Shown piece after piece: positions 12,684-50,383 of a stretch of 64,000 bases of DNA. The position numbers and the translations under genes are program-made. Numbering within the stretch: position 1 is the stretch's first letter; each line of letters starts with the position of its first letter. The notes below the pieces were generated by a model. That model did not search any database. It saw nothing but the letters and a program-made list of their open reading frames with translations, and was not told where the DNA came from. Source of the DNA: a virus. Its lineage: Duplodnaviria; Caudoviricetes. The stretch is from IMG/VR virus record IMGVR_UViG_3300010355_000588; one strand, given 5' to 3'.

Positions 12684-13556
12684 TTACTTAGAAGAAGCTT
12701 CTAGGAGAGAATAATCGAGTTTTCCATCTGGAGATATCTTCAACAGCAACATTTCTCCTCTGTCTCCTCTGTAGTCTGTCTGGTCGCTGCAGAAGTTTCC
12801 AAGGCTATATGCCGTCAGATGGTCTTTTCCATTTATCTGGAATTTGTCTACGCGCTGGGGCACGTGCGGGTGAGAGCCAATTATGACGTCGAACAAATTG
12901 TTCTCATGTAGATAATTAGCTATTTCTAACTGATCTTTATTTGGCTTATGAGAATATTCTGAACCCCAGTGCATGTAGCATATTTTGAAATCTACTCTAA
13001 GCTCTTCAGCCTTAGCTACGTCGTTAACCACGTCTTCATATGAGAACATATTGACAATTGAAGACAATGGCTGAGGTTTTCTATTCAGGAGCATAGTATA
13101 GTTAGAAATGGATATGCGTCTTCCTTTTCTTTCTACTATCAGTGGGTTGTTTTTTTCCTTGTCCTTGTGGTCTATGAACGCGCCGGTTCTTCCGACCTTC
13201 AGCCAATCCAGGACAGAAACCGTACGTATAAGACCAGATTGGCCACGGTCTAGAATATGGTTGTTGGCGTTTAGAAAAACGTCGAAGCCTTCTTTGCGGT
13301 GTAAATCTATAGCGAATTTGTCAGGAGCTGAAAATTCTGGAAAGCCTCGAAAAGGAGCATCGCCCAACACTGTCTCAAGATTGACGACCTTTAGATCAGC
13401 CTCTGGCGTCTTTGGATATTCGAAGTGCCATCCATTGCCACCCTTTTCAGGCTTCCATGCTTTCCTCAGGGTTTCGTCATGGACCATAGCATCGCCAACA
13501 AACAATATAGTCAGCGGCTCTATCTGTTTTTCTAAAAAGAACCGTTCGAACTTCAT
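12684..13556 (-). CDS. CapA/PGA_cap family metallophosphatase with CTS-like leader
   Basis: VGDAM.H, VNLET, ANNHILDRG, HWGSEY, IIGSHPHVPQ, AYSLGNF motifs. Confidence 0.85.
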   Translation of the reverse strand: MKFERFFLEKQIEPLTILFVGDAMVHDETLRKAWKPEKGGNGWHFEYPKTPEADLKVVNLETVLGDAPFRGFPEFSAPDKFAIDLHRKEGFDVFLNANNHILDRGQSGLIRTVSVLDWLKVGRTGAFIDHKDKEKNNPLIVERKGRRISISNYTMLLNRKPQPLSSIVNMFSYEDVVNDVAKAEELRVDFKICYMHWGSEYSHKPNKDQLEIANYLHENNLFDVIIGSHPHVPQRVDKFQINGKDHLTAYSLGNFCSDQTDYRGDRGEMLLLKISPDGKLDYSLLEASSK

Positions 13557-13855
13557 TTAAGCTTATCGCCTAGATATTTGACGTCTACGTTGCTATAGTG
13601 ATTGTCAAATTTTCTGTTGAAAGTCAAAAGTCTATATATGTCTACCATTTTGTCTTCTACCTTCTTAGAGACAGAATGTACAAAGCCAGCCAGGTTGCCT
13701 TCTTTCTTCAAGGTCTGAACTCGTCTGCCACCAATAGCATTGTCGCTTTCGATGGAATAATATCCATCCTTAGGAAAGAGACGGTCGATGGCAGCCTGTT
13801 CTTTTGAACTTATAGAATATTCTAGAATCGTTTGGATTTTTTCTTCGAACTTCAT
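13553..13855 (-). CDS. Hypothetical protein with CTS-like leader (MKFEEKIQTILE)
   Basis: Leader shared with the 37-46 kb genes; TATAAATA at 13920-13927. Confidence 0.7.
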   Translation of the reverse strand: MKFEEKIQTILEYSISSKEQAAIDRLFPKDGYYSIESDNAIGGRRVQTLKKEGNLAGFVHSVSKKVEDKMVDIYRLLTFNRKFDNHYSNVDVKYLGDKLK

Positions 13856-23683: not shown

Positions 23684-24073
23684 TTATCTAAAATTCGAAT
23701 GCGTAACACGAACTTGCGGATATCCATCATTAGGCAGATCCACCACTATCTTTGCGGTAACTGTTTTGCCATTTGGGCGTTTTACAGTTCTTGGGGCGGA
23801 CTCCATACTATCAACGGCAGGCATCCAACCTTTCGAATTTTTGACTTGTTTGAAGCCAATTCCTTTTAAAGCCTTGATAGCATCTTCTTTTGAAGCAAAT
23901 TCTAACGTAGGACCACCTTCACCTGGAGCAGGATTGGTATTATATCCACTACGGACGTTGAATTTCTTAGCTAATTCAAGCGCAATAGTAGTGCTTGCTC
24001 CCCTAGCAAGTAGATCGTCAGAAATCTCAAAAGATTCAGCAATGATTTGTTCGACAAATTTTAAAAATTTCAT
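23684..24073 (-). CDS. Hypothetical protein with CTS-like leader
   Basis: MKFLKFVEQIIAES (compare T4 IP ..FIAE|); AATAAATA upstream. Confidence 0.7.
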   Translation of the reverse strand: MKFLKFVEQIIAESFEISDDLLARGASTTIALELAKKFNVRSGYNTNPAPGEGGPTLEFASKEDAIKALKGIGFKQVKNSKGWMPAVDSMESAPRTVKRPNGKTVTAKIVVDLPNDGYPQVRVTHSNFR

Positions 24074-24095
24074 GAATGTATCCTTACTAATTTAT

Positions 24096-25187
24096 TTATT
24101 TTATTTGAAGCCCAATTCTATCTTTCCATCCATTGGTAGAATTCTTGGATCTAAATTTGACCTTTAGATCTGAGCCTTCTTTGATAGAAAACGAAGGTTT
24201 GGATCCTCTCAGATTCACCATAACATATTTTACCTTCAAAAATTCATTTATGGTCTTCTCAAATATTTTAACGTACTTATCGCCGTTCAGTACAGAAATG
24301 GCAGCTTTCTCTATAGCATATCGTTGAGCTCCGTCGTCCATGTTCGAAGAATCATACTTGATTCCAAACATGTCAGCCAAATCATATGGAGCCATTTTTA
24401 TGCTAGACGTCGAGAGTATCTCTATGATTTTAGATATCTCGTCGTTCTTGTTTTGGAATAGATCAGCAATATCCTTAAGCTTTATGACGTTTGTAGTAGA
24501 GGCGTCAGCCTTAACTGAATATTTCTTGTCTCCATCCTTAGTTCTTATCATGAAGTCTATGAGTGGATAGTTTCCAGCCTCGGGAATGAATATGTATCCA
24601 TTTCTTGTCTGCTTGGCTGCTTCAATGGCAGCCAAAATTTCACCAAAGTTCTTTTCGACCTGAGCCAGATCCGAACCAAGTTCTTTAGCTAAGGTAGCAT
24701 ATTCTCTGGACGAACCGGTGGTGGTTGCTTCAACTGCTGCCTTTAAGAACATTTTCACCTTTTCTGGCAGATCAATTCTATTGTCTATGGAATTCATAAC
24801 ATTGCTAACGAAAGTTTTTACGTCATATTCTTTTCCGACGACGCCTTCGAAGTCCTGTGGTTTTACCTTCAATCCTTCTGAGCTTTTAGCCCATTTCATA
24901 TTGACGTCTTTTGGAGAAGTGGTGTCAGAAGTAGTATATATGATTAGAGCAAGTTTGGAAGTGCTGGAAAGGCAGCGCAATAGAAAGCCATTGTTAGATT
25001 CTTTCTTGAATTTTCTAACTTCGTCGAATTCGGATACGTTGGGAGGCGAAGTGAACCGTTCTATAGAATCCAACACATATTTGTGGCCACTACTCAAATC
25101 TTGCAGTTCGTCGCCAACATGACTTGCGTGAGTTATCCCACGCCCTTCGTTCAATCTTTCGTCAAAATATTCCAAAAATCTCATCAA
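24096..25187 (-). CDS. PD-(D/E)xK nuclease-like protein with CTS-like leader
   Basis: MRFLEYFDERLNE; FGEIL...NYPLIDF...YSVK restriction-fold motif. Confidence 0.6.
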   Translation of the reverse strand: MMRFLEYFDERLNEGRGITHASHVGDELQDLSSGHKYVLDSIERFTSPPNVSEFDEVRKFKKESNNGFLLRCLSSTSKLALIIYTTSDTTSPKDVNMKWAKSSEGLKVKPQDFEGVVGKEYDVKTFVSNVMNSIDNRIDLPEKVKMFLKAAVEATTTGSSREYATLAKELGSDLAQVEKNFGEILAAIEAAKQTRNGYIFIPEAGNYPLIDFMIRTKDGDKKYSVKADASTTNVIKLKDIADLFQNKNDEISKIIEILSTSSIKMAPYDLADMFGIKYDSSNMDDGAQRYAIEKAAISVLNGDKYVKIFEKTINEFLKVKYVMVNLRGSKPSFSIKEGSDLKVKFRSKNSTNGWKDRIGLQIK

Positions 25188-35153: not shown

Positions 35154-35927
35154 TTATTTATCTAGAACCTGAGTCTTCAGAAGGCCCCTGATTTCTTGAA
35201 CATATTTCGAGATTTCTTCCCGATTTACCTTATATTTCTTGGAAATGGTGGCAACAGGCAAACCATCTACATGGGCACGGAATACTGCCACTTTGCGTTT
35301 TCCACCGACTTTAGATTCTAGACCACTAAGAACATTATCGATTTTGGAGAAGATTTCTTTATAATAGATCTTGTCTTGGGTGTCTTCAGCTGAGTGTTCG
35401 AGCTGAAGCAAATCGCCAAAGGTGGTAGATGAGTCTTCAGAACTGACTGGAGTTTCCATAGACGTAACGGTGAACATGTTGCTCAGGGTAGTCTTGGCAC
35501 AGCGTTCTCCGAGCTTCGAGTGTTTGGCAAGCTCGTCATTGGAGGGGGTATATCCATGTTGTTCAATCCATGCATTCTTTTCTTCGTTGAGCGTCCGGAT
35601 CTTTTCATATTGGTTGACCGGAAGACGGACAGTGCTGCGATGGTTCTTGATGTAGCGTTGGATACGGCCCATGACATTGTAACGAGCGATAGTGATGAAC
35701 TTATGGCCGAGACTTGGATCGAATTGTTCGGCAGCCATTGTAAGTCCAAGAAGACCTTCTTGAAGCAGATCCTCGAATTCAGCGACGCCATAAGATCCAG
35801 CATATTTCCGAACCATCATCATAGCGAACTTCATGTTGTGTTCCACTAGTTCGTCACGAGTGGCCACCTTTTCTTGTTCACGGGTAAGCGGCGCCTTATA
35901 CTTTGTACTAGACAGATTGAAACTCAT
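35154..35927 (-). CDS. sigma70-family RNA polymerase sigma factor (regions 2-3, divergent region 4)
   Basis: LVEHNMKFA, DLLQEGLLGL..AAEQFDP..G.KF, TVRLPVN, PS.DELA, SMETPV...FGDLL. Confidence 0.9.
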   Translation of the reverse strand: MSFNLSSTKYKAPLTREQEKVATRDELVEHNMKFAMMMVRKYAGSYGVAEFEDLLQEGLLGLTMAAEQFDPSLGHKFITIARYNVMGRIQRYIKNHRSTVRLPVNQYEKIRTLNEEKNAWIEQHGYTPSNDELAKHSKLGERCAKTTLSNMFTVTSMETPVSSEDSSTTFGDLLQLEHSAEDTQDKIYYKEIFSKIDNVLSGLESKVGGKRKVAVFRAHVDGLPVATISKKYKVNREEISKYVQEIRGLLKTQVLDK

Positions 35928-37051: not shown

Positions 37052-37390
37052 TTACTTCATCTTACCTTCTGCTTCCGCCTCTTTTTCCATTTTATCCAAT
37101 CTTGTGTAGTAATCCGGGATCTCAGCAAGATGATCCATGGCGATCTTCTTAGCCAGTGCTTCTTCTAACTGAGGGTTTACTCCCTTAGTAACGTGTTCCA
37201 TCTCGACACGGATTCCCATAGCTAACTCTTTTGGATCTACGTTTATTGGTTCGGCGGCTTCGTTCGATAGTCCGCCTTGTACCAACACTTTGAATATGTC
37301 GTTCACTCCAGGTATAGTAGAAGAAGTTGTCATCACTTCATATGGATGAGCCATCTCGAGTAGCTTGCTGATTCGTTTTTCAAATTTCAT
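37052..37390 (-). CDS. DUF5661-like protein with CTS-like leader
   Basis: MKFEKRISKLLE; ELAMGIRVEMEH...IAMDHLAEIPDYYTRL. Confidence 0.75.
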   Translation of the reverse strand: MKFEKRISKLLEMAHPYEVMTTSSTIPGVNDIFKVLVQGGLSNEAAEPINVDPKELAMGIRVEMEHVTKGVNPQLEEALAKKIAMDHLAEIPDYYTRLDKMEKEAEAEGKMK

Positions 37391-37425: not shown

Positions 37426-37908
37426 TTATTTATCTGCGGACATCTTAGGCACGCCAGCTGGAAATATTTCTTTCTCAGTGAGTATGATGAATTTAGCACC
37501 TTTAGCTTCAGCGAACTTGGAGGCAGCATTCCACTTGGCGGTATTTCTAATGTACGTCATTGCTTCTTCGTAGTACCGTTTGTCTGACTTTCTCCCCTTA
37601 ACCGGCATTATGGTCTCTTTGTGGGGTTTGACTTCGCAGTATATCTTGCTGATCTTTCCAGTCTTGTCCTTTACAGTAAAGGACAGATCGATAAAATATC
37701 TATGGGTGGTTCCGGCGCGCGATGGATCCACATATTCTACCACTGTCGATTCCGATCCCCATTGGAGGATGGCGGGATTAAGGTCCATATATCTAAAGCA
37801 TTGCAATTCCCAGGCCGAGCGGAAATAAATTTTTTGTAAGCACCCTATATACTTTTCCTTATTTCTAGGAACGAACTTGCCCTGCTTATAGCCATAACCC
37901 TTTTTCAT
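37426..37908 (-). CDS. gp4: Head completion nuclease
   Basis: GKFVPRNKEKY, FRSAWE, WGSE, HRYFID, EVKP, N.AKW.AA, F.ILTE. Confidence 0.9.
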   Translation of the reverse strand: MKKGYGYKQGKFVPRNKEKYIGCLQKIYFRSAWELQCFRYMDLNPAILQWGSESTVVEYVDPSRAGTTHRYFIDLSFTVKDKTGKISKIYCEVKPHKETIMPVKGRKSDKRYYEEAMTYIRNTAKWNAASKFAEAKGAKFIILTEKEIFPAGVPKMSADK

Positions 37909-39024: not shown

Positions 39025-39049
39025 AAAAAAGGGAAGCATTGCGCTTCCC
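39025..39049 (-). terminator. Rho-independent terminator ending the CTS gene array
   Basis: GGGAAGC-gcaat-GCTTCCC-TTTTTT on the minus strand. Confidence 0.8.
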
Positions 39050-39085
39050 TACTTCCGAATTACCACATAAGGAAGATAATATTAT

Positions 39086-39430
39086 TTATTTCTTAGCTCC
39101 AATCAGTTCATCGCGAAGTATCTTGCCTAGCCTTTCGTTTTTGTTCTTGACGTCGGCTTTGGTAAAGGAGGTAGAATGTTTCTGGTTGAGATATTTTAGG
39201 GTAGCTTCGATTTCCTTGTCGTCGATGTCTGGATCTTTACTAACTGCTCTGGTAAGAAAACTTGCAGTAGAAGAAAATGCTTGATCCTTATATCTAGCCA
39301 TCGGCTCGCCCATGAGAGCAGCAAGAATTAGAATATTAGACAAAAAGTTACTTAGCTTTCCCTCTTCTAATTCGACAGTTTGGGCAGGTTCGCTTTCTAG
39401 AAGGCTTCTTACTTTTTGTTCGAACTTCAT
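39086..39430 (-). CDS. Hypothetical protein, CTS-like leader
   Basis: Start reassigned to MKFEQKVRSLLES (SD AAGGA). Confidence 0.7.
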   Translation of the reverse strand: MKFEQKVRSLLESEPAQTVELEEGKLSNFLSNILILAALMGEPMARYKDQAFSSTASFLTRAVSKDPDIDDKEIEATLKYLNQKHSTSFTKADVKNKNERLGKILRDELIGAKK

Positions 39431-39485
39431 CTGGTGTTTCCTTAGCTTCCATATTCTAGCGTTCTCTGATTGTCTGGTGCCATAT

Positions 39486-39560
39486 TCAGGCATTTGTCTT
39501 CATGTCGTCATGGAAACAATTATGGAACGTCTCTCTTATTTGTTTTTCTTCAAATTTCAT
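39486..39560 (-). pseudogene. Truncated CTS-leader gene remnant (MKFEEKQIRE..., 24 aa)
   Basis: Leader start followed by early TGA; leftover sequence to 39431. Confidence 0.5.
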
Positions 39561-39564
39561 CTTA

Positions 39565-39819
39565 TCAGCCTCTATTTAGTTCTCGTTTTTCGTCAACAAG
39601 TTCCACATATTGCTGTTGCAAATCGTTTATGTTCCATTCTAAGTCATAATTTTCTTTCTTGATCTTTTCAGTATAAGATGCTAAAGCCTTCTGATTGTCT
39701 TCCAACTTTTTCTTAGACTTTCCTATGTCTTTAGATATCTTATCTATTTTTGCTTGAATCTGTTTCAAGTCTGACTGTTTGTCTTCAAGCAACTTGTCGA
39801 TTTTTGTCTTGAACTTCAT
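39565..39819 (-). CDS. Coiled-coil protein, CTS-like leader
   Basis: MKFKTKIDKLLED. Confidence 0.7.
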   Translation of the reverse strand: MKFKTKIDKLLEDKQSDLKQIQAKIDKISKDIGKSKKKLEDNQKALASYTEKIKKENYDLEWNINDLQQQYVELVDEKRELNRG

Positions 39820-39830
39820 TTTATTATCCT

Positions 39831-40265
39831 TTATGGAAGCAAATAAAATGTATCTTTTCCACGCATCTTGGTCTCAGTAGCAGCCGCCTTCAGAGCATCC
39901 TTATATTTGCCACGATATTGGAATGCTTGGTCGTCCTTGTAGCTCTCTCCCGAGCGCAGGTACCCGATATGGAACATGAAATATCCTGTTGCAGTTGCCG
40001 CAAATTTTGGTTTCTTCCCATGGACAGCTTCATACTTGATGGTGTCATAAGTTACTCCATCGATCTTTGATTCTGATTCCAACAATTCTTGAATTTTTTC
40101 TTCGAACTTCATAATATTTCCTTCTGGTAGTTTGTCATAATCCACCCCATCTATCCATTCCTTATCCCATACCCACTTCCATTCGGCGGGAGTGGCTGCC
40201 TTTGTCTCATATTGAGAACGCTTGGCCTGAATCAGTTTGAACTGTTTTTTAGATTTAGCAGGCAT
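39831..40265 (-). CDS. Fusion of an MPAKSKKQ-type peptide with an internal CTS-leader protein (second start 40112)
   Basis: Internal SD AAGGA + MKFEEKIQELLES; cargo paralogous to 40566..40823. Confidence 0.65.
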   Translation of the reverse strand: MPAKSKKQFKLIQAKRSQYETKAATPAEWKWVWDKEWIDGVDYDKLPEGNIMKFEEKIQELLESESKIDGVTYDTIKYEAVHGKKPKFAATATGYFMFHIGYLRSGESYKDDQAFQYRGKYKDALKAAATETKMRGKDTFYLLP

Positions 40266-40555
40266 TAAGCAAGCATATCTCCAAATCCATAACCAAGATC
40301 TATATTGAATTTGTTGGACGCCAAAGTTTCGGCAACTTTCGTCTATTCTGCTTCCTTCTTATCTAAACGATTTCTCAAATTCGTCGCGTCGACTTCGATA
40401 TTGTAGAGTTTGATAAGCAAGTCTCTTAACGCTTTAGGAGTATTTGTATCTTTCATCAGCGCTGGCACGTCATTGCCATATAATGGACCTGGATTATCTA
40501 GATAATTTTGGTATGCTGATTCTTCCAGTTCTTTGATCTTTTCGTTAAATTTCAT
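40265..40555 (-). CDS. CTS-leader protein with in-frame TAG at 40343-40345
   Basis: Frame continues 25 codons past the TAG to a TAA overlapping the next ATG (TAATG). Confidence 0.6.
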
Positions 40556-40565
40556 GTCAGCGCCT

Positions 40566-40823
40566 TTATGGTTTTACATAGCTTAGTTCTTTTTCGCCAG
40601 CCTTCTTTGCTTTCTCAATGGCCTTCTTCTTGGCGTCCTTATAGGAACCCTCATATTGGAAAATCTTGTCAAGATATTTGGAATCCTTAGGACCCGAATG
40701 GGTTCCAATCAAGAATGAGAATATTCCGTTATCAGTGTCCTTCGGTTCGTCTTTTGCTTTGAAATATGGATTCGATGCCTCATCCAATAGCTGACTGACA
40801 TATTCTATGAATCTATGTTTCAT
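40566..40823 (-). CDS. Hypothetical protein, CTS-like leader
   Basis: MKHRFIEYVSQLLDEA; FQYEGSYKDAKK motif shared with the 39831 gene. Confidence 0.7.
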   Translation of the reverse strand: MKHRFIEYVSQLLDEASNPYFKAKDEPKDTDNGIFSFLIGTHSGPKDSKYLDKIFQYEGSYKDAKKKAIEKAKKAGEKELSYVKP

Positions 40824-41152
40824 TCGAATATCTCCGATGCTTTTCCAACAAGCTTATTGTCAACATATACGTTATAGTCAATTTTGCGAGATGGGTTCAG
40901 ATCCCGCACCCTCTTGTAAGTCTCTTCAGCAGCATCGATATTGAGCATGGGCTTCTTGGCATCGTGCATTTTGCTTTCGGTTCCATCGTTCTTGAGAGAT
41001 ATGAGCATTACTGGTTTTTTGTCCTGCCGATATTTTGCCAGATCGCTAAAGGCGTGTTTCCAGCCTTTGATAGCTTCTCCCATGGAAGTCTCCTCTGATT
41101 TGCCAAAGGTCGTTGTTCCTAACAACGCTTCAGCAAGTTGGTTGAATTTCAT
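40820..41152 (-). CDS. Hypothetical protein, CTS-like leader
   Basis: MKFNQLAEALL. Confidence 0.65.
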   Translation of the reverse strand: MKFNQLAEALLGTTTFGKSEETSMGEAIKGWKHAFSDLAKYRQDKKPVMLISLKNDGTESKMHDAKKPMLNIDAAEETYKRVRDLNPSRKIDYNVYVDNKLVGKASEIFE

Positions 41153-41214
41153 AGCAATCCTTTATCATATTTGTTAGATTTGTTAAATTTGTTATTCATT
41201 ATTTTTGCCTATAG

Positions 41215-41244
41215 TTACTATATAACAAGATTGGGATTTGTCAA
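41215..41244 (-). promoter_or_regulatory. sigma70-type promoter
   Basis: TTGACA-16 bp-TATAGT. Confidence 0.55.
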
Positions 41245-41269
41245 TAAAGCTATAGACAAAAATACCAAC

Positions 41270-41572
41270 TTATTTTGACTTCTTATATGCAGCTTCAAAG
41301 TCTTTCATCGCCTTAGCTTTGTCTACTTTGGCATCTGGACCAATTGGAAGGAACATCGCAAGCTTTCCATTGATGTAGATTCCCTTTCGGACGACGTCGA
41401 ACTCGGCATCTGGATATTTCTTAAGGAATTCAGCTTGGACTTCGTCAAGAATAGCAAGTGCTTTCTTAGAGACGTCGTCTTTCTGAAACTTAATATCGTT
41501 CATGTAGCGAGAAATATCTTCATGCGAGTAGGAAGCTTCGAGAAGTGAAGCAATTTTTTCTTCAAATTTCAT
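41270..41572 (-). CDS. Hypothetical protein, CTS-like leader
   Basis: MKFEEKIASLLEAS; TATAAATA at 41594-41601. Confidence 0.75.
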   Translation of the reverse strand: MKFEEKIASLLEASYSHEDISRYMNDIKFQKDDVSKKALAILDEVQAEFLKKYPDAEFDVVRKGIYINGKLAMFLPIGPDAKVDKAKAMKDFEAAYKKSK

Positions 41573-41593: not shown

Positions 41594-41601
41594 TATTTAT
41601 A
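41594..41601 (-). promoter_or_regulatory. Late promoter TATAAATA
   Basis: Exact match. Confidence 0.75.
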
Positions 41602-41615
41602 GAATCATTTAGATA

Positions 41616-42182
41616 TTAATTTACGTATTTCTTTATCAGATCATATGTTTTCTTATCCAGATTTACCATGCGCTCCTTGGTTCCTTCGAAGTCGTCGTTC
41701 TTTATATGGTTTCTGACCTCAGTAGCCGACATTACTCTATCTGACAGGGTTACTTCTAGGTCTCCGTTCAGTTTAGTTACGTAGTTCTGAGCCATTTGCT
41801 TGTAGAAAGGTATTCTATCTTCTCCAGCTATCAGCTCCACAGGTTCGTATCCTTCAGCCCTCAGCTTATCGAAGATTTTTACTAGGTCCGCTGATTCTAC
41901 CTGAACGACATCCTTTATCTTAGATATTCTAGCATTTCTGATTATTTTCTCCTGGACATCAGCTGGAAATGGATTCTTGTCTTTATCTTTAGAAGACACC
42001 GTTCCCTTTACAAGAAGCATGATAACTGGATGTTTGGCCTTCTTTACCATAGCTGCGTGTCCGATATGGAATGGCGAATATCTACCAATGATAATGGTGA
42101 CTTTGGTTTTAGCGGGTTCCAAGACATGGTCGTTTGGATTGAAGGCTTCTAAAATTTGTTTGCAACGTTCTATAAATTTCAT
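41616..42182 (-). CDS. HIGH-superfamily nucleotidyltransferase (cytidylyltransferase/NMNAT-like), CTS-like leader
   Basis: IIGRYSPFHIGH, KNPF, AGEDR, MSATEVR; start MKFIERCKQILEA with ATGA overlap. Confidence 0.85.
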   Translation of the reverse strand: MKFIERCKQILEAFNPNDHVLEPAKTKVTIIIGRYSPFHIGHAAMVKKAKHPVIMLLVKGTVSSKDKDKNPFPADVQEKIIRNARISKIKDVVQVESADLVKIFDKLRAEGYEPVELIAGEDRIPFYKQMAQNYVTKLNGDLEVTLSDRVMSATEVRNHIKNDDFEGTKERMVNLDKKTYDLIKKYVN

Positions 42183-43246
42183 AATTTCACCAAAGATATA
42201 ACTTTGACGCCAGGGGCGCCACAAATAACTTCCCATTTTGGTCTTTTATTAGATTCAGCTGACGGCTTTCCTTCCCAATATAATTTTACTTCTTTCATTA
42301 ACAAATCACCATATTTTTTAGCATTATCCTTTCTTTGCTTTGCTGTTTCAGCAAATTCATCTTCTTCTTTCCATCCTGCTCTAATACTTTCAAATTCATC
42401 GATTATGTTCATATCTGCTATATGATATTTTCCAAGTGGTTCTACCATATAAATATATGACCTGCCTAATTTTTTAGCATTATTAACTAGATCATCTAAT
42501 TCCTTGAACGCAAAAACACTGTTCAATCTAGGTGGCTTACTTGATGGTCTATGTTTTTCGAATATTTCTTCTAAATGTTTAATTGATAGATATACTGCCC
42601 ACATTCCACCTTTTACTTTCTCCAATGGGTCCCAATAGCCTTTGATGATTTCACCAGGTTTATATAATTCGGTATGTGTTGCGTGAAAAAACTGGTTTTC
42701 TTTTGGATTTTTAAATATTGCTCTAATATTTGTGTCTGCTTTTTTATCTTTTTCTTTAAAAGATTCTATAACCTGTTTTGTTACACCTATAATGAAGTCA
42801 GATACCTTCATGTTTTTAGGCTTTAGCCAGAGTTGTTCATTAGTTTTTTTGATATCTCCAAGCAATAAACTACCTTTCGCTTTAAGATAAGATCTATCTA
42901 TGATGTTTTTAGATACCTTGTCACGAAAAATATATTGCATCAATTTGTCTTTTGGAAATTTTTCGTAAATCTCTTTTATATGTTTGTCTGTAATTTCAAA
43001 GGCAAGCTGAATCATGCCATGAATATTAGAATCTGCGTTGAATGAATCGAAATCTTCATTGTATTCTAGATTATTTGGTATAAGCTATAATTCTTTATCA
43101 TAGAAAAGCTTGTCTAAAGATTTTACCGTATGATTAAGTTGTCCATTTTTTAGACTATTAAGATTGTCAAGGCCATATAATCCCGTCGCCATGTTATAAT
43201 TGTCTTCAAGTAATAGATATGCATTTACCAATTGTTCAAATTTCAT
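42179..43246 (-). CDS. Arr-like ADP-ribosyltransferase domain protein, CTS-like leader, in-frame TAG at 43085-43087
   Basis: FFHATH..LYKPGEII...RP...PRLNSVFAF...YIYMVEP...YW.G...WEVI; upstream in-frame MKFEQLVNAYLLLED from ATG 43246. Confidence 0.65.
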
Positions 43247-44436
43247 TTTCTATCTCCTCCAAAATAGGCTATTAGCGTGTTTATTTTGTCTTTGTCCATA
43301 TTGTTCAGCTTTGCTGCTTCGGCAGCTATGAACGCTGACTGATTGTCTTTCAGCGGAGAAGGCACGTTAGCTTTCTGTTGTTCCCACTGATCGATTATCT
43401 TATTGATGTCTTTCTGATATTGGTCAAGATGTTTAGCAAAGGTCTTTAGCAATTTGTCCTCAGTTTTGTTATCCATGACGTATTTGAGGGCGAACTTCCT
43501 GGCCTTATATCCGGTCACGTCAGCCATGAACTTCTTCTGGCGCTCTTCCAACATTCCAGATATCTTGAAATATTCTTCCTTTACATATTTCCATTCTGGA
43601 TTCTGGATGCCGACCAAACCACCGATGGTATGGAGAACCAACCCTTCTACTTTCGAGTCCTTGACTCCGAAGAGGCTGCCCTTTTCGTTGGCATATTTGA
43701 CGAAAGCTTCGTTTACTTTGTCTCGTAGCGATTCCAACTCTTCATGGTCGAGAGCATCCACATTAGTAACTACCTTCTTCATTGTCTTGTCGTCGACCTC
43801 GTAGAATAATGGTATGGATCCATTCCAGCGAAAGTCGACGTTGTTCTCGAGGACAGTGAACTCCTTGTTGGACAACGCTCGAATTTCTTTGTTCAGTGGA
43901 TGCCCAGGAACCTTTTCAAATTTTCCATTTTCTAAAAGCAATATGTCGAATATGACGAAGGTGGCGAAGGTGCCTAACTTCTTGGCGTCGTATTTAGTAG
44001 CCACAAAGGTTACGGTGCCATCCTTGTCAATGGGCAATCCATCCAAATAAAATAATTCTCCATATACCTTGAAGTCGCCATATTTCTTGTGTAGCTCCAG
44101 AAGCTTCTTACCAAACTTGCTTTCAATATATCTTAAAACTTCTCCATAGTTCTTCATTGGTCCAGAAAACTTGTCAGCCTTCTGCATGCCAGAGTTCGAC
44201 GTCTCCCCGAAGATCTCTCCTTGATAGACAGCGAACCGAAAGGATGAACCATCGATCTTCTCGGTAATTCGAAGTAAATCTAGATCTATGGCGCCATTCT
44301 TTATATATGGTAGAAGTTCCTTGAAGAACTGGATGAATTCCTTGTCATTCATCTGATGGATCTTCTTCATGGCTTCTCGCTTGGTCTTGGTGTCGACCTC
44401 TGCCTCATTCAATATGTAGTACTTTAGGAAGTTCAT
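43243..44436 (-). CDS. ATP-dependent ligase-like (KxDG) nucleotidyltransferase, RNA-ligase-like; CTS-like leader
   Basis: Motif I TEKIDG, III VYGELF, IIIa FVIFDI, IV VEGLVL; MNFLKYYILNEA. Confidence 0.75.
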   Translation of the reverse strand: MNFLKYYILNEAEVDTKTKREAMKKIHQMNDKEFIQFFKELLPYIKNGAIDLDLLRITEKIDGSSFRFAVYQGEIFGETSNSGMQKADKFSGPMKNYGEVLRYIESKFGKKLLELHKKYGDFKVYGELFYLDGLPIDKDGTVTFVATKYDAKKLGTFATFVIFDILLLENGKFEKVPGHPLNKEIRALSNKEFTVLENNVDFRWNGSIPLFYEVDDKTMKKVVTNVDALDHEELESLRDKVNEAFVKYANEKGSLFGVKDSKVEGLVLHTIGGLVGIQNPEWKYVKEEYFKISGMLEERQKKFMADVTGYKARKFALKYVMDNKTEDKLLKTFAKHLDQYQKDINKIIDQWEQQKANVPSPLKDNQSAFIAAEAAKLNNMDKDKINTLIAYFGGDRK

Positions 44437-45329
44437 GAATATTTCTCCAAGCCTTCTGGAATAGGCACGCCCTGGCTGATGAGACCTCTGACGACATCCG
44501 ACATTATTTTGTCACGTTTATCCGCATAGATGAAATCTTTATCCATGACGATAGAATATAGACTGTCGAAGGTCAGTACGTCTGATGGTTTGTATTTGTT
44601 TGGACCGAAAACATAGTCTAGAATCTTTTGTGGATCTTTAGTGAGAGTCTCTTTGTTTAGGGTCTTTACTGTAGCTGAGATGCCCTTCTTTCCCTTTATG
44701 CTCTGGGTTGCTTTACTTAATCCAGCATTCATGTCGAACATGAAGCGTTTCCATTCAACAGGAACCTCTATTCCTTCAGCATTGAACGCCTTTTCGATGA
44801 CTTCCATCTTGGATTGCTTGATGATACTGATTAGAAGCAGATTTCTATATAGACCTTTCCATTGGCTTTCCCATTCAGCTGGAGCATAATATGCGAAGGT
44901 TGAGAATTCGAGGTTGTCAGTAAGCATCAGATCGAGTTGAACAGACTGATTTTCTTGCTTTCCATCGATATTTGCGATCGGCCATGCTATAGAAATGATA
45001 GAAAATCCATAACTTGGAGTGATCTGATCGGTGAACTTTCTGGATTTGTCGCCAATGAAGTCGATGATGTCTTTTACCGTTGGCTTATTCTTATCTACCA
45101 TCTTCGTCATGTCTATAGCCAAATCGATATCTCCTGAAGATCCACCTGGCTTTTTCTTTCCAGTGCTTCCAAGAACTGCTACGTTGTCCTTTGTTAGTCC
45201 AAGGGTTGGCAGAAGTCTTTTGTAGATGTCATCCAGGGTAGCTTGCACGTTTTCCTGGTTGATTCTAGAAGCTTGGACAGCATTGCCGCCTTCCATTAGC
45301 CTTTCGAGATAATAATTTAGGAATTTCAT
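44433..45329 (-). CDS. Pol-beta superfamily nucleotidyltransferase, CTS-like leader
   Basis: LGSTGKK...SGDIDLAID...VQLDLM; start MKFLNYYLERLMEGGNA. Confidence 0.8.
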   Translation of the reverse strand: MKFLNYYLERLMEGGNAVQASRINQENVQATLDDIYKRLLPTLGLTKDNVAVLGSTGKKKPGGSSGDIDLAIDMTKMVDKNKPTVKDIIDFIGDKSRKFTDQITPSYGFSIISIAWPIANIDGKQENQSVQLDLMLTDNLEFSTFAYYAPAEWESQWKGLYRNLLLISIIKQSKMEVIEKAFNAEGIEVPVEWKRFMFDMNAGLSKATQSIKGKKGISATVKTLNKETLTKDPQKILDYVFGPNKYKPSDVLTFDSLYSIVMDKDFIYADKRDKIMSDVVRGLISQGVPIPEGLEKYS

Positions 45330-45925
45330 TTGAAGTCGATTTTTCCACGTTCGATTCTTTCTTGTATCCAATCTATCGTAGCATATGGACCTTTTATAGA
45401 TCCAACGCTATCTATGACATCGACGCCCGAACTATCTACGACGTCGACAGAAAAAGACGAGAATGTTTGAGATTCTATATATTTCTTCAGACTAGTCCAT
45501 GCCTTTAGAGACATCTTATTGGCAAAAGATATTCCATACATGCCAGCTGTAGGTGCTGAGAATCTGATCCAACCTTTTCCATAAGCCACCTTGAATGGCT
45601 TTATCATTGCTTGCATTGGGCTGGGAGAATCGGCATCCAAGAGGTGAGCAGCCAGATCCCGATGGGTTCTGAACTTCTTGTTGTCGAGGTTCAGTTGCTT
45701 TCCCTTTTCGTCGAACCAACAGGGCGTCAGTTGAGTGGCCTCGTTTAGACCAACCATCTCTTTTTTATGGTTCAATTTGAAAGTCTTGTCCTTGACATGC
45801 TTTATGCCATCTTTAGTATAAACGTCTCCCGAGAAATCTTTGTAAATTCCTGGAAGATTAGCCACCATCAGTATGGTGTCCTTTTCCTTCTCGAGAATTT
45901 CTTTGACTTTTTCTAGATATCTCAT
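45326..45925 (-). CDS. Hypothetical protein, CTS-like leader
   Basis: MRYLEKVKEILE; WF..KG...H...GWIRF. Confidence 0.65.
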   Translation of the reverse strand: MRYLEKVKEILEKEKDTILMVANLPGIYKDFSGDVYTKDGIKHVKDKTFKLNHKKEMVGLNEATQLTPCWFDEKGKQLNLDNKKFRTHRDLAAHLLDADSPSPMQAMIKPFKVAYGKGWIRFSAPTAGMYGISFANKMSLKAWTSLKKYIESQTFSSFSVDVVDSSGVDVIDSVGSIKGPYATIDWIQERIERGKIDFK

Positions 45926-46179
45926 AAGGTGTTTAGAATGTTTGAAAAGTCGTCCTTGATCTTCTGGTCGTCGAATTTCTTGGACATGTCAACCATCATG
46001 GACGTCAGCTTCGTTATGTTCGAATCGATATTCTTCATAGCAAGACCAAAAAGAGGTTCGAACATCTGACGTGCCAACTTATGCTTCTTTATGAACGAAT
46101 CTAAAGCAGCTATGAATTTCCGTTCCTTGTCCTCGTTTTCCAGCACCCTCTGATAAGCCTTCATGAATCTAAATTCCAT
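45922..46179 (-). CDS. Hypothetical protein, CTS-like leader
   Basis: MEFRFMKAYQRVLEN. Confidence 0.6.
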   Translation of the reverse strand: MEFRFMKAYQRVLENEDKERKFIAALDSFIKKHKLARQMFEPLFGLAMKNIDSNITKLTSMMVDMSKKFDDQKIKDDFSNILNTL

Positions 46180-46193
46180 TCTTCTTTCTCCGT

Positions 46194-47207
46194 TTATATG
46201 TCATTATGGCCGACATCTTTATCGGTCACTTCGTTGTTGTACCATTCGGCGAAATCGAACATAGTCATGCCGCTAGTAAGATAGTCAGCATTGCTAAAGA
46301 ATAGTAGATTTCCGTCTTCAGCAACTGTAAACTTTCCTTGGGAGACAAGCGACTCTGCTAGTGCAGATCCAGATACCGCTCCAGATATTTCTTGCCAATA
46401 TCCAGATATGTCACCAGATATAGGTAGCCAGTCCCAATTCTTTCTATTTCTATCAGCCTTGATGAGACCTGCTTTAATATTTTCTTTGAATCCATCGATT
46501 CCAACAGTAACTGGAACATCATACCATCTATCCAACATGTAGCCATCTTCGCCAAATGGAATGAGATTCGGAGTAGCGTTGATCTTGAGAATCTTCGGAA
46601 GATCGTCGTCATATTCGCCAACGCCAGGAAAGAACCATGTCTTGAAGGTAAAGGAAACGTCGCCCAAACATCTATATGGAGCCGATTCAGGTAGATCTTC
46701 TGGAATAGTTGTCGAGACGCTTCCGTCCCAAACCACCTGGGATTTGATATTGCACGAAGGAAACTTTGGATGTTTCCATACGACGTAGATATCTGGCTGG
46801 AAGAATGGAATGAAGTTGTTTACTATCTGGTCTAGATCTTCTATATAGCGAGTTATCGCAGTGAGAGTGAAAGTGACATTTATTGGAATTGGAGTGGCTT
46901 GGGCTGTATTCGAATATCCATCAGTCCCAAATAGTAGATGGTTGTGGATAGAATGCACCCTCTGGACATCTCGGACGAATCCAACACGGTTTACAGCTAT
47001 CATAGGGACAGATAAAGTCTTGTTTGGATTTTCCAGAGACTTCAGAATTCTAGAGCGCTGTCCAAACACGCAAGGGACCTCAATAAGCTTCTGAATAGTC
47101 GGGTCATCTATTGAGCCCGTTCTTCTATCTATAACGATATTATTAAAGACATCCATGAACATCGCAGTGGCTATCTTTAATTCGGAATTATAGGATCTAA
47201 ATTGCAC
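46194..47207 (-). CDS. gp15: Tail sheath terminator/stabilizer
   Basis: F.DVFNNIVI.R, I.VP..FG, P.PINV.F.L, DQIVNNFIPFFQP, FTFKTWFF. Confidence 0.9.
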   Translation of the reverse strand: MQFRSYNSELKIATAMFMDVFNNIVIDRRTGSIDDPTIQKLIEVPCVFGQRSRILKSLENPNKTLSVPMIAVNRVGFVRDVQRVHSIHNHLLFGTDGYSNTAQATPIPINVTFTLTAITRYIEDLDQIVNNFIPFFQPDIYVVWKHPKFPSCNIKSQVVWDGSVSTTIPEDLPESAPYRCLGDVSFTFKTWFFPGVGEYDDDLPKILKINATPNLIPFGEDGYMLDRWYDVPVTVGIDGFKENIKAGLIKADRNRKNWDWLPISGDISGYWQEISGAVSGSALAESLVSQGKFTVAEDGNLLFFSNADYLTSGMTMFDFAEWYNNEVTDKDVGHNDI

Positions 47208-47238
47208 GAAGCAACCTCTTTCTAAAACATCTGTAAAA

Positions 47239-47275
47239 TTATTTATCGTATCCTATGGTTCTTGAGAATAAATAC
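47239..47275. promoter_or_regulatory. Back-to-back late promoters for the gp15 operon (-) and the portal operon (+)
   Basis: GATAAATA on the minus strand, AATAAATA on the plus strand. Confidence 0.55.
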
Positions 47276-47313
47276 TATTAGAACAAATTCAACAAATCTA
47301 AAGGAAAATTCCT

Positions 47314-49011: not shown

Positions 49012-49722
49012 ATGAACCAACTGAACGAACTCAAACTAATCGTTGAGAACGATCCTCACGAACTCGAATATATTCTAGAACAAAAGAACGAACGCGCGCC
49101 TGGATTTCTAAGAATCAAAGGTCCATATATCGTCACCGAGAAAAAGAACGCCAATGGCCGTATCTATTCCAGATCGCTTATGGAAAAGTCGGTGGCTGAC
49201 TTCAAGACAAACTACATTGACAAATGCGTGGCCTTTGGAGAAATGAACCATCCAGACCATAACCATATTGACTACAACAATATCTGCCATAAGATCGTCT
49301 CGCTCACACAGGAAGAAGACATTTGGATAGGCGAATCAGTAGTTCTAATGACGTCAGCTGATGGAACTGTCAAAGGCACCCCTAAGGGCGACATACTTGC
49401 CTCGGTCATCCATCATGGCGGTAAACCAGGCATGTCTACCCGCGGCGTTGGAAAATTATCAGAAGGCAATGTCGTCAAAGACCAATATAAGATGATAACT
49501 ATCGACTGTGTCTCCAATCCATCTGGACCCAACTGCTACGTGAATGGCATTCTCGAATCGAAGACATTCATGATAGATACCTACGGAGACATCGTTGAGA
49601 AAGCATTCGAACAATTTCAGAGAAATCTCGAATCGATTCCAACCCACTCCATCAAGACAGACGAAGGTTCGAAGCATCTGATCGAATCGATAAAGAATTT
49701 CATCGATAGTCTAAAAGTATAG
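49012..49722 (+). CDS. gp21: Prohead protease
   Basis: NANGRIY, GEMNHP, TPKG, GMSTRGVG, D.VSNPS. Confidence 0.95.
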   Translation: MNQLNELKLIVENDPHELEYILEQKNERAPGFLRIKGPYIVTEKKNANGRIYSRSLMEKSVADFKTNYIDKCVAFGEMNHPDHNHIDYNNICHKIVSLTQEEDIWIGESVVLMTSADGTVKGTPKGDILASVIHHGGKPGMSTRGVGKLSEGNVVKDQYKMITIDCVSNPSGPNCYVNGILESKTFMIDTYGDIVEKAFEQFQRNLESIPTHSIKTDEGSKHLIESIKNFIDSLKV

Positions 49723-49957: not shown

Positions 49958-50383
49958 ATGAAATTTAGTAGATTATGCGAAAGCTTGCTTAACTCAAAAA
50001 CAATATTAGAACAAAAATTCACAAAAGCTAATATGTTTATGAAAGTTAGCCCAAAGGAATTTAATTTAGATCAAAAACAATTTGATAAATTAAATCTTTT
50101 TTTGCTCCGTGCGATATATTCTAATATAAACGCGGATAAGAGAGGCATAAAAATTGGGCTTACTTCTTCCGTTCTGAATTGGATGTTCGAAAAATTTTAT
50201 AAAGATGCTGAAAAATTCTTCAAAGTAACTTTTTCCGATTCCGCTAAAGAAGCGATGTTTGATCATATCAAATTTATTAATAAACTAAAAGGATCTGAAC
50301 TTGAAGATTTAGGCCGATTTATGCATGAACTTGATCCTACTCTATCGGACGACAAATATGCAGGCCGTCCATTTTGGAGTTAA
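49958..50383 (+). CDS. AT-rich hypothetical protein with CTS-like leader inserted in the head module
   Basis: MKFSRLCESLL...ILEQ; own ATAAATA promoter. Confidence 0.65.
   Translation: MKFSRLCESLLNSKTILEQKFTKANMFMKVSPKEFNLDQKQFDKLNLFLLRAIYSNINADKRGIKIGLTSSVLNWMFEKFYKDAEKFFKVTFSDSAKEAMFDHIKFINKLKGSELEDLGRFMHELDPTLSDDKYAGRPFWS

Follow-up and report, generated by a model that had tools for sequence, protein, structure and literature searches.

Three nucleotide-transferring enzymes are encoded within one minus-strand run of genes at positions 41,616 to 46,179 of a 64,000-nucleotide stretch of DNA from a virus of the Caudoviricetes (IMG/VR record IMGVR_UViG_3300010355_000588; the whole stretch is referred to below as the window), and together they represent a unit that is conserved among related phages. 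The three are a nucleotidyltransferase with a Pol-beta fold (NT), a covalent nucleotidyltransferase of the RNA-ligase family (LIG) and a nucleotidyltransferase of the HIGH superfamily (HIGH). Each begins with a leader that resembles the capsid-targeting sequence of phage T4, and homologues of the T4 head genes adjoin. On the basis of sequence, structure models and analogy, we consider the chances to be about even that these enzymes are packaged in the head and cleaved from their leaders, and that they would extend and seal broken ends when the phage enters a cell.

Conservation of the three-enzyme unit

NT, a ligase-like gene and HIGH form a conserved three-enzyme unit. The earlier note on this DNA had set as a check whether the three co-occur or are fused elsewhere, and the outcome is strongly positive. 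The NT alignment, run against viral contigs, found 80 loci, which together with three fetched earlier make 83; these hold 64 distinct NT proteins, and their gene families were scored with profiles built in this analysis. HIGH lies within 10 kb of NT on the same strand at 72 of the 83 loci. A ligase of the PF09414 type is present at 32 loci and a member of DUF6267, a Pfam family of unassigned function, at 21, and the two never occur together in one locus. Where NT is flanked by at least 3 kb on both sides (57 loci, from uncultured phage contigs), HIGH is found at 55 and both HIGH and a ligase-like gene at 51, always on the same strand. The ligase-like gene is firmly assigned at 37 of these 57 loci, or at 53 when divergent families are counted.

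The same domains are also joined in more than 50 natural fusion proteins with several domain orders, including NT-LIG (dozens), NT-LIG-HIGH, HIGH-LIG-NT, NT-NT-LIG-HIGH-NT, HIGH-NT, LIG-HIGH-NT(-NT) with a NUDIX domain, NT-DUF6267-HIGH and DUF6267-NT. Relatives that combine NT, LIG, HIGH and NUDIX domains are polypeptides of 900-1800 residues, and in three Atlas clusters, of 62, 238 and 255 phage proteins, a cytidylyltransferase-like domain is linked to a ligase-like fold. In addition, proteins of 726-768 residues encoded beside NT and ligase genes (L034:11074-13254 and L042:11116-13422) combine HIGH with an AAA_33/Zeta-toxin-like P-loop kinase and DUF5824; AAA_33 is a family that we take to include polynucleotide kinases. 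Separate or fused, the unit is found again on numerous contigs of uncultured phages, the largest of megaphage size (433 kb).

DUF6267 replaces the PF09414 ligase beside the NT gene at loci such as L013:9273-10448, L017:10900-12117 and L024:1175-2401. Its members carry the motifs KWDGSP, QGDxMF, EGFVA and KLVDR, its N-terminal half aligns weakly with LIG over motifs I-IIIa (hhalign pairwise E 0.0099, probability 4%), and one member has a weak match to the Rnl1 family. From these motifs and alignments, DUF6267 is read as a probable alternative ligase-like enzyme. It occurs in 464 phage records, mostly of cyanophages (tblastn), and no paper naming it was found in the literature searched. Three more neighbour families align with LIG around motif I, with probabilities of 45-81%.

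The three enzymes

NT matches no Pfam or PHROG family and has more than 150 metagenomic relatives, which are 37-52% identical over the aligned part. Its model (pLDDT 92.8) is most similar to TdT (Z 10.7), the palm and thumb of Pol beta (Z 10.4-10.6) and the Pol X of African swine fever virus (ASFV; Z 10.0), and in the last case 166 of 176 residues align with an rmsd of 3.3 and an identity of about 13%. The top eight representatives all belong to family X (Z 9.6-10.7 over 163-195 aligned residues), in line with a palm-plus-thumb arrangement but with a modest margin over the background Z of 7-8, and the RNA-specific terminal transferases align over a core of only about 100 residues. The residues G54 and S55, D67 and D69, and D133 are invariant among 37 sequences. 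The 8-kDa lyase domain and the fingers (helix-hairpin-helix) domain are lacking: the matches to Pol beta span only residues 145-335 or thereabouts of that chain, and the NT model begins with the palm. ASFV Pol X likewise lacks both domains. Matches to the model in the viral library BFVD included giant-virus Pol X and an uncharacterised protein of Agrobacterium phage Atu_ph07 (TM 0.70-0.75). NT is, as modelled, a minimal family-X-polymerase-like enzyme with predicted polymerase activity. A complex prediction for NT with LIG scored 0.01.

LIG belongs to PF09414 (2.6e-9; 37.9 bits against a cutoff of 27) and has motifs I, III, IIIa, IV and V. K60, D62 and G63 (KxDG), E127 (motif IIIa) and E264, G265 and V267 (the EGxV of motif IV) are invariant among 12 sequences, and the Atlas places phage RNA-ligase clusters of the Rnl2-like and DraRnl-like types among its structural neighbours. 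No relative was found when the LIG profile was compared with solved structures or when viral contigs were scanned with a single ligase sequence, and single-sequence searches of NT, LIG and the ADP-ribosyltransferase-clan protein described below against solved structures gave nothing useful. By its family and motifs, LIG is a PF09414 covalent nucleotidyltransferase of the Rnl2-like kind, with RNA as a candidate substrate.

HIGH carries the motifs GRYSPFHIGH and SATEVR, and G33, P37, H42, S152 and R157 are invariant in its family. The family profile matches the archaeal NMNAT MJ0541 (6.4e-14) and PPAT (1.8e-10), and the curated NMNAT models score HIGH at 25.8-28.2 bits, so that their cutoffs of 127 to 409 are all missed. 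The alignments place HIGH as a HIGH-superfamily nucleotidyltransferase nearest to archaeal NMNAT, with NMN adenylyltransferase as a candidate activity. The earlier note had named these three proteins a Pol-beta nucleotidyltransferase, a KxDG ligase and a HIGH nucleotidyltransferase; the first name stands at the level of the fold, given the family X matches and the invariant carboxylates, the second is borne out by the Pfam score and the invariant motifs, and the third is confirmed at the level of the superfamily (PF01467, motifs and profile matches).

Gene order and transcription signals

The phage is a distant, deep-branching relative of T4; its portal protein is less than 30% identical to that of any cultured phage, and a megablast of the region against cultured phages returned no match. 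A gp15 gene is followed by seven minus-strand open reading frames (ORFs), and by their coordinates neighbouring frames overlap by 4 bases except at the gap between the 53-aa and 278-aa ORFs. The six genes that were earlier described as joined by ATGA overlaps are therefore joined as stated elsewhere but not at this gap, where one supposed gene consists of two ORFs. The other coordinates and the motifs quoted in the earlier note agree with the ORF list, 42179-43246 excepted. The features are as follows; a slash marks the predicted cut point of a leader.

46194..47207, minus strand: gp15-like tail sheath stabiliser, with which the transcription unit opens (PF16724 1.5e-23; phrog_227)
45922..46179, minus strand: 85-aa ORF with leader MEFRFMKAYQRVLE/N, function unassigned
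45326..45925, minus strand: 199-aa ORF with leader MRYLEKVKEILE/K, function unassigned
44433..45329, minus strand: NT, 298 aa, Pol-beta-fold nucleotidyltransferase by model and fold matches, leader MKFLNYYLERLME/GGNA
43243..44436, minus strand: LIG, 397 aa, RNA-ligase-family covalent nucleotidyltransferase (PF09414), leader MNFLKYYILNE/A
43085..43246, minus strand: 53-aa leader ORF, MKFEQLVNAYLLLE/D, ended by an in-frame TAG at 43085-43087
42179..43015, minus strand: 278-aa ORF of the ADP-ribosyltransferase clan by its model, BC2332/DUF2441 type, in frame with the 53-aa leader ORF
41616..42182, minus strand: HIGH, 188 aa, HxGH / SxTxxR nucleotidyltransferase (PF01467 2.4e-6), leader MKFIERCKQILE/A
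39086..41572, minus strand: further small genes with the same leader type, by the leader pattern; the run is closed by the hairpin at 39030-39050
49012..49722, plus strand: gp21-like prohead protease, presumed cutter of the leaders (phrog_207 7.3e-46)

The 85-aa and 199-aa proteins gave no usable family, homologue or Atlas match. In the window as a whole, no tRNA gene was found, PADLOC returned nothing relevant, and tblastn found no NAMPT, NUDIX, NAD kinase, SIR2 or AAA_33 kinase gene. Just past the run of leader genes lie a protein with a TnsA-like endonuclease N-terminal domain (37426-37908) and a sigma-70-like factor with regions 2 and 3 (35154-35927).

The genes had been placed under a late promoter. 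A motif does lie where this requires, GATAAATA at 47240-47247, which is 33 bases upstream of gp15 and matches the T4 late consensus with one mismatch; however, the class of one-mismatch motifs is not enriched in the window (105 against 92 expected). The exact TATAAATA is enriched (10 against 3 expected), and one copy stands at 41594-41601, just after the HIGH gene. The minus-strand hairpin at 39030-39050, at the end of the leader-gene run, is terminator-like. In the interval that separates the divergent gp15 and portal genes (47208-47313), GATAAATA lies on the minus strand and AATAAATA on the plus strand, and comparable N-ATAAATA motifs precede the p141 and scaffold genes. These motifs together suggest ATAAATA as the probable late promoter core in this phage.

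Leaders and head maturation

To describe the leaders, M-[KNREH]-[FYH]-x(4-14)-hydrophobic-x-E was required where an open frame begins; this pattern matches 22 times in the window compared with 0.3 times in codon-block shuffles. Two of the 22 matches are false, being inside a helicase and a sigma factor, and most of the true matches are preceded by a Shine-Dalgarno-like AAGGA or GGAG. All of the leaders quoted earlier (LME/GGN, LNE/A, LLE/D and ILE/A) are present, and the likeness then drawn to the T4 capsid-targeting sequence survives comparison with the starts of IPI, IPII and IPIII and of homologues. In the T4 record, IPIII and IPII start MKTYQEFIAE/A and IPI starts MKTFKEF. Module homologues elsewhere start MKSFKEYIGE/A, MKRFKTFVAE/A, MKSFKTFIKE/K and MKTFKEHLNE/A, which follow the T4 pattern position by position, and the window leader MKF..LLE is a slightly longer variant of 12-13 residues. 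Like the propeptides of 10-19 residues that define the T4 class, those of the window end in (L/I)-x-E with hydrophobic residues near positions 4 and 7, and all four family consensuses open M-x-x-F-x-x-(F/L)..E. In the related loci, the simple regular expression matched 35-57% of module proteins against a background of 21%; it was set aside there as too blunt and the family consensus was used instead.

Moreover, E13, G14 and G15 are invariant in the NT family although the leader itself is variable. The NT-LIG fusion proteins P0204, P0205, P0207 and P0212 start M-GGNA or M-GGKA, that is, at the predicted cut point of the NT leader, and such starts mark the leader as a putative detachable module. 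In T4, the first ten residues of IPIII suffice for head loading, propeptide positions 4 and 7 are important for targeting and positions 8 and 10 for gp21 cleavage, and foreign proteins with the T4 leader are delivered into the next cell (PMC9026906, PMC3012670).

The machinery that such leaders would serve is encoded close by. Homologues of gp20, gp21, gp22 and gp23 adjoin, with the T4-type prohead protease 3 kb away; the portal protein matches PF07230 (4.4e-82), the scaffold protein weakly matches phrog_237 (0.0043), and the major capsid protein has a match as well. The scaffold protein contains 24 (L/I/V/M)xE sites and the major capsid protein has LRE/A at residues 61-63, which are the candidate cut sites that T4-like maturation would require.

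About ten more genes have an MKF..(L/I)xE leader (39086-41572, 37052-37390, 23684-25184, 13553-13855 and 49958-50383). The gene at 37052-37390 encodes a DUF5661 protein, most of the others are without a known family, and one sits between the protease and scaffold genes. The 362-aa leader protein at 24096-25184 was considered as a second copy of the ligase or NT, which it is not.

Virion proteomes of cyanophages bear on packaging. The cytidylyltransferase of S-SZBM1 matches the HIGH profile (7.8e-42), starts MRFRQFIIE/A, and was detected in purified virions (PMC9146016). The cytidylyltransferase of S-CREM2 was likewise detected in virions (PMC10665884), as were NMNAT-like proteins of S-SCSM1 and S-CBWM1 (PMC9602691). 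These proteomes support packaging for the HIGH family only, which is one of the three.

The ADP-ribosyltransferase-clan protein

An Arr-like ADP-ribosyltransferase (ART), encoded by a single gene at 42179-43246, had originally been counted as a fourth member of the kit. This gene is interrupted by the in-frame TAG at 43085-43087, which splits it into a 53-aa leader ORF and a 278-aa catalytic ORF. TAG ends 8 of the 74 ORFs of the window, the protease gene included. Amber recoding was rejected, as TAG is a normal stop and the read-through contexts have no pattern. Most of the 42 ART relatives are encoded by one ORF of 316-363 aa that includes a leader, and the window gene therefore looks like a once-continuous gene of 355 codons that is now interrupted. 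A second leader gene that ends in TAG is found at 40343-40555, where the frame stays open for 25 more codons to the start of the next gene.

The ART model (pLDDT 89) best matches BC2332 (2AUA; Z 12.1, rmsd 2.9, 142 residues; Foldseek E 1.7e-4 and profile match E 0.0012), followed by Arr at Z 5.8; the low-scoring matches include other ADP-ribosylating toxins and Tpt1 (Z about 4.6). A DUF2441 cluster is among the Atlas neighbours, and although the window protein has no Pfam match, its homologues P0124 (weakly) and P0128 carry PF10386. BC2332-like proteins are a family in the SCOP ADP-ribosylation superfamily (PMC3000352), and DUF2441 is placed within the Pfam ART clan (PMC7955679). As candidates for the catalytic H/R, Y and E residues, the alignment, which was made without residue-level superposition, shows His (in some members Arg) at position 111, a conserved IYxV strand and an invariant E262. 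Membership of the Arr family was rejected, because the NF033144 score is 12.9 bits against a cutoff of 130 and the structural Z is only 5.8. A weak cGAS profile match of the N-terminal region of the family (E about 0.006-0.02) was judged spurious because it involves a poorly aligned lysine-rich region. The earlier assignment holds as to the fold, and the nearest relatives are BC2332 and DUF2441, of which we know of no member with known activity.

The ART family was found at none of the 83 NT loci. Because the stop codon uncouples the protein from its leader and the family is absent from these loci, ART is a lineage-specific add-on outside the conserved unit. A leader-bearing DUF2441-like gene (L089:5486-6556) lies directly after the phage lysozyme gene of a T4-like contig, and T4 carries ipIII and ipII at the matching position, which suggests that the ART family protein is an interchangeable internal protein.

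Discussion

We propose that the operon is expressed late and that its products would be cargo of the head. A propeptide of 10-13 residues would direct each protein to the scaffolding core within the prohead, a cut after (L/I)-x-E by the gp21-like protease would follow, and the mature enzyme would leave with the DNA at infection; we infer this loading, cleavage after Glu and ejection, and the folds, leaders, maturation genes and linkage are what was observed. Once delivered, the kit would act on broken nucleic-acid ends before phage gene expression. NT would add nucleotides to the 3'-OH end, the Rnl2-family ligase would seal the nick, and HIGH would provide an adenylyl step, either by making NAD+ or by adenylylating a phosphate end; the P-loop kinase domain found in relatives would fit end healing. 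A polymerase-like enzyme that is fused to a ligase most simply indicates 3' extension followed by sealing. Packaging speaks for a task that cannot wait for gene expression, and the incoming genome is therefore favoured as the substrate; of the two candidate substrates, packaging favours the genome and the ligase family points to RNA. A more specific version, which we advance only tentatively, is that the trio would be a virion-borne system for strand-break repair of the incoming genome (or of cut RNAs) before expression, in which HIGH would act on phosphate ends or regenerate the adenylyl donor and would not serve general NAD+ metabolism.

Several observations weigh against this proposal. The PF09414 family points to RNA whereas the family X fold points to DNA. 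Sequence and fold do not give substrates, and NT could instead be an RNA terminal transferase or act on a target other than nucleic acid. What HIGH does is the weakest point of the proposal. It could synthesise NAD+, or it could transfer AMP to a phosphate end, which is the chemistry of its superfamily, and any part played by an NMNAT-like enzyme in filling and sealing is conjectural. Some homologues are without a leader, and the virion detections cover HIGH in relatives, not this phage nor any NT member. Neither an end-healing phosphatase nor an apurinic/apyrimidinic (AP) endonuclease was seen among the genes of the operon. Nor are the related loci independent of one another, as the 64 distinct NT proteins among the 83 loci indicate. 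Furthermore, cultured T4-like cyanophages and a pelagiphage have DUF6267 beside a 'cytidyltransferase' without NT, and since these phages hold ligase-like and HIGH genes in this way, NT is not indispensable to the ligase/HIGH pair.

Among solved structures, HIGH is closest to archaeal NMNAT and NadM, and from these the genes could be explained as an NAD+ warfare kit. HIGH would then be a true NMNAT that restores NAD+ at entry and counters NAD depletion or feeds ARTs, the ART protein and the NUDIX domains of relatives would be parts of one NAD/ADP-ribose network with it, and the roles of NT and LIG would be secondary. NUDIX is indeed fused in several polyproteins, NT lies near NadM, NAMPT, NAD kinase and SIR2 genes on one jumbo-phage contig, authors of cyanophage proteomes proposed such a role (PMC9602691), and packaged ART and Nudix proteins are a known myovirus theme (PMC9503650). 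We nevertheless consider this explanation unlikely. HIGH falls below every NMNAT cutoff and its PPAT scores are nearly equal, NAMPT was not found in the window by tblastn whereas phage NadM has been reported only together with NadV (PMC9503650), ART is absent from all 83 related loci, and it would be left unexplained why HIGH is so closely fused to a ligase and a polymerase-like enzyme.

If weight is given to the family of LIG and to the weak Rnl1 match of one DUF6267 member, the kit could be meant for RNA only and would mend tRNAs cut by host anticodon or acceptor-stem nucleases. NT would restore 3' nucleotides, LIG would join the halves, the kinase of relatives would heal 5' ends, and the ART-fold protein with NAD+ would remove the 2'-phosphate in the fashion of Tpt1/KptA. 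Phage use of a nucleotidyltransferase with an RNA ligase and of KptA with NAD+ has been described (PMC9503650), relatives carry HIGH joined to an AAA_33 kinase domain, and Tpt1 is among the weak ART-fold matches. However, this task arises after infection starts, so that packaging would be unneeded. T4 Pnkp and Rnl1, for example, are ordinary early proteins. The NT palm and thumb also fit family X DNA polymerases better than RNA-specific transferases, and the ART protein is nearest to BC2332 rather than Tpt1 (Z 12.1 vs about 4.6) and is not conserved with the module; we regard RNA repair alone as quite unlikely. The enzymes might also not be injected, in which case the leaders would serve otherwise or reach only the prohead, and the enzymes would have a late task in the cell that makes the virions, where they might, for instance, trim, fill and seal DNA ahead of packaging or while it proceeds. 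The position of these late genes among morphogenesis genes and the homologues that lack a leader are in line with this explanation, and it is general knowledge that T4 packaging requires nick-free DNA. We judge it very unlikely, because HIGH homologues are present in purified cyanophage virions (PMC9146016, PMC10665884, PMC9602691) and the T4 leader type suffices to load foreign proteins, which are delivered to the next cell (PMC9026906).

The route of delivery is known, and the combination of cargo appears to be undescribed in the literature searched, in which we found no description of the NT family, of the ligase nature of DUF6267 or of the three-enzyme unit with its fusions. The T4 head-targeting leader carries small anti-restriction proteins and one ADP-ribosyltransferase; here the same route would appear to carry a conserved unit of three catalytic domains. 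Two of the families concerned have no functional annotation, namely NT, for which there is no Pfam model, and DUF6267, which is listed as unknown and has ligase motifs. If repair at entry is true, phages can bring repair enzymes ready-made, which would be relevant to how damaged virions survive in sunlit waters and to how phages escape nucleases. A concrete meaning would also be given to the 'cytidylyltransferase' that has repeatedly been detected in cyanophage virions and is usually filed as a metabolic gene.

Comparison with known systems

The leaders of the window are similar to those of T4 IPI, IPII, IPIII and Alt in having a short propeptide with an aromatic residue at about position 4, a hydrophobic residue at about position 7 and an (L/I)-x-E end, followed by a diverse mature part. 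Late expression and the adjoining T4-type prohead protease and scaffold genes are further points of likeness to the T4 internal proteins (PMC9026906). The cargo of the window differs in that it consists of nucleotide-transfer enzymes rather than small basic proteins or an Alt-type ART, and its packaging is inferred. For the ART protein, the closest system is BC2332/DUF2441 (SCOP d.166.1.6), which supplies the best structural match and the Pfam matches of homologues; the window protein has about 100 further residues at its N-terminal end as well as a leader, and is encoded by an interrupted gene.

According to the strand-break reading, the trio would be likened to ASFV Pol X and its DNA ligase, or to cellular Pol beta, ligase and polynucleotide kinase. 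The ASFV pair shares with the window a palm-plus-thumb enzyme without the 8-kDa and fingers domains and a ligase partner, but the partner in the window is an RNA-ligase-family enzyme and no AP endonuclease was seen. LIG resembles T4 Rnl2, kinetoplastid REL1 and DraRnl (PF09414) in its motifs, Pfam score and Atlas structural neighbours, and differs from these RNA ligases in having its own C-terminal extension and a leader and in being fused to NT or HIGH in relatives. The pairing of a Pol-beta-fold transferase with a ligase recalls the TUTase-plus-ligase pair of RNA editing.

The idea of injected multi-enzyme proteins has already been published (PMC5512222, PMC9503650). Phage polyvalent proteins, as outlined by Iyer et al. 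(2017, PMC5512222), are multidomain proteins that are injected with parasite DNA at the earliest phase of infection. The relatives' polypeptides that join NT, LIG, HIGH and NUDIX are similar to these, whereas in the window the domains are separate genes with their own leaders. The 'cytidylyltransferase' or NMNAT-like proteins of cyanophage virions belong to the HIGH family (7.8e-42 to 5.2e-42) and are encoded beside the ligase-like DUF6267. In contrast to the window, the cultured cyanophages and the pelagiphage are without the NT gene, and published accounts class the enzyme with the auxiliary metabolic genes or as an NMNAT and give DUF6267 no function.

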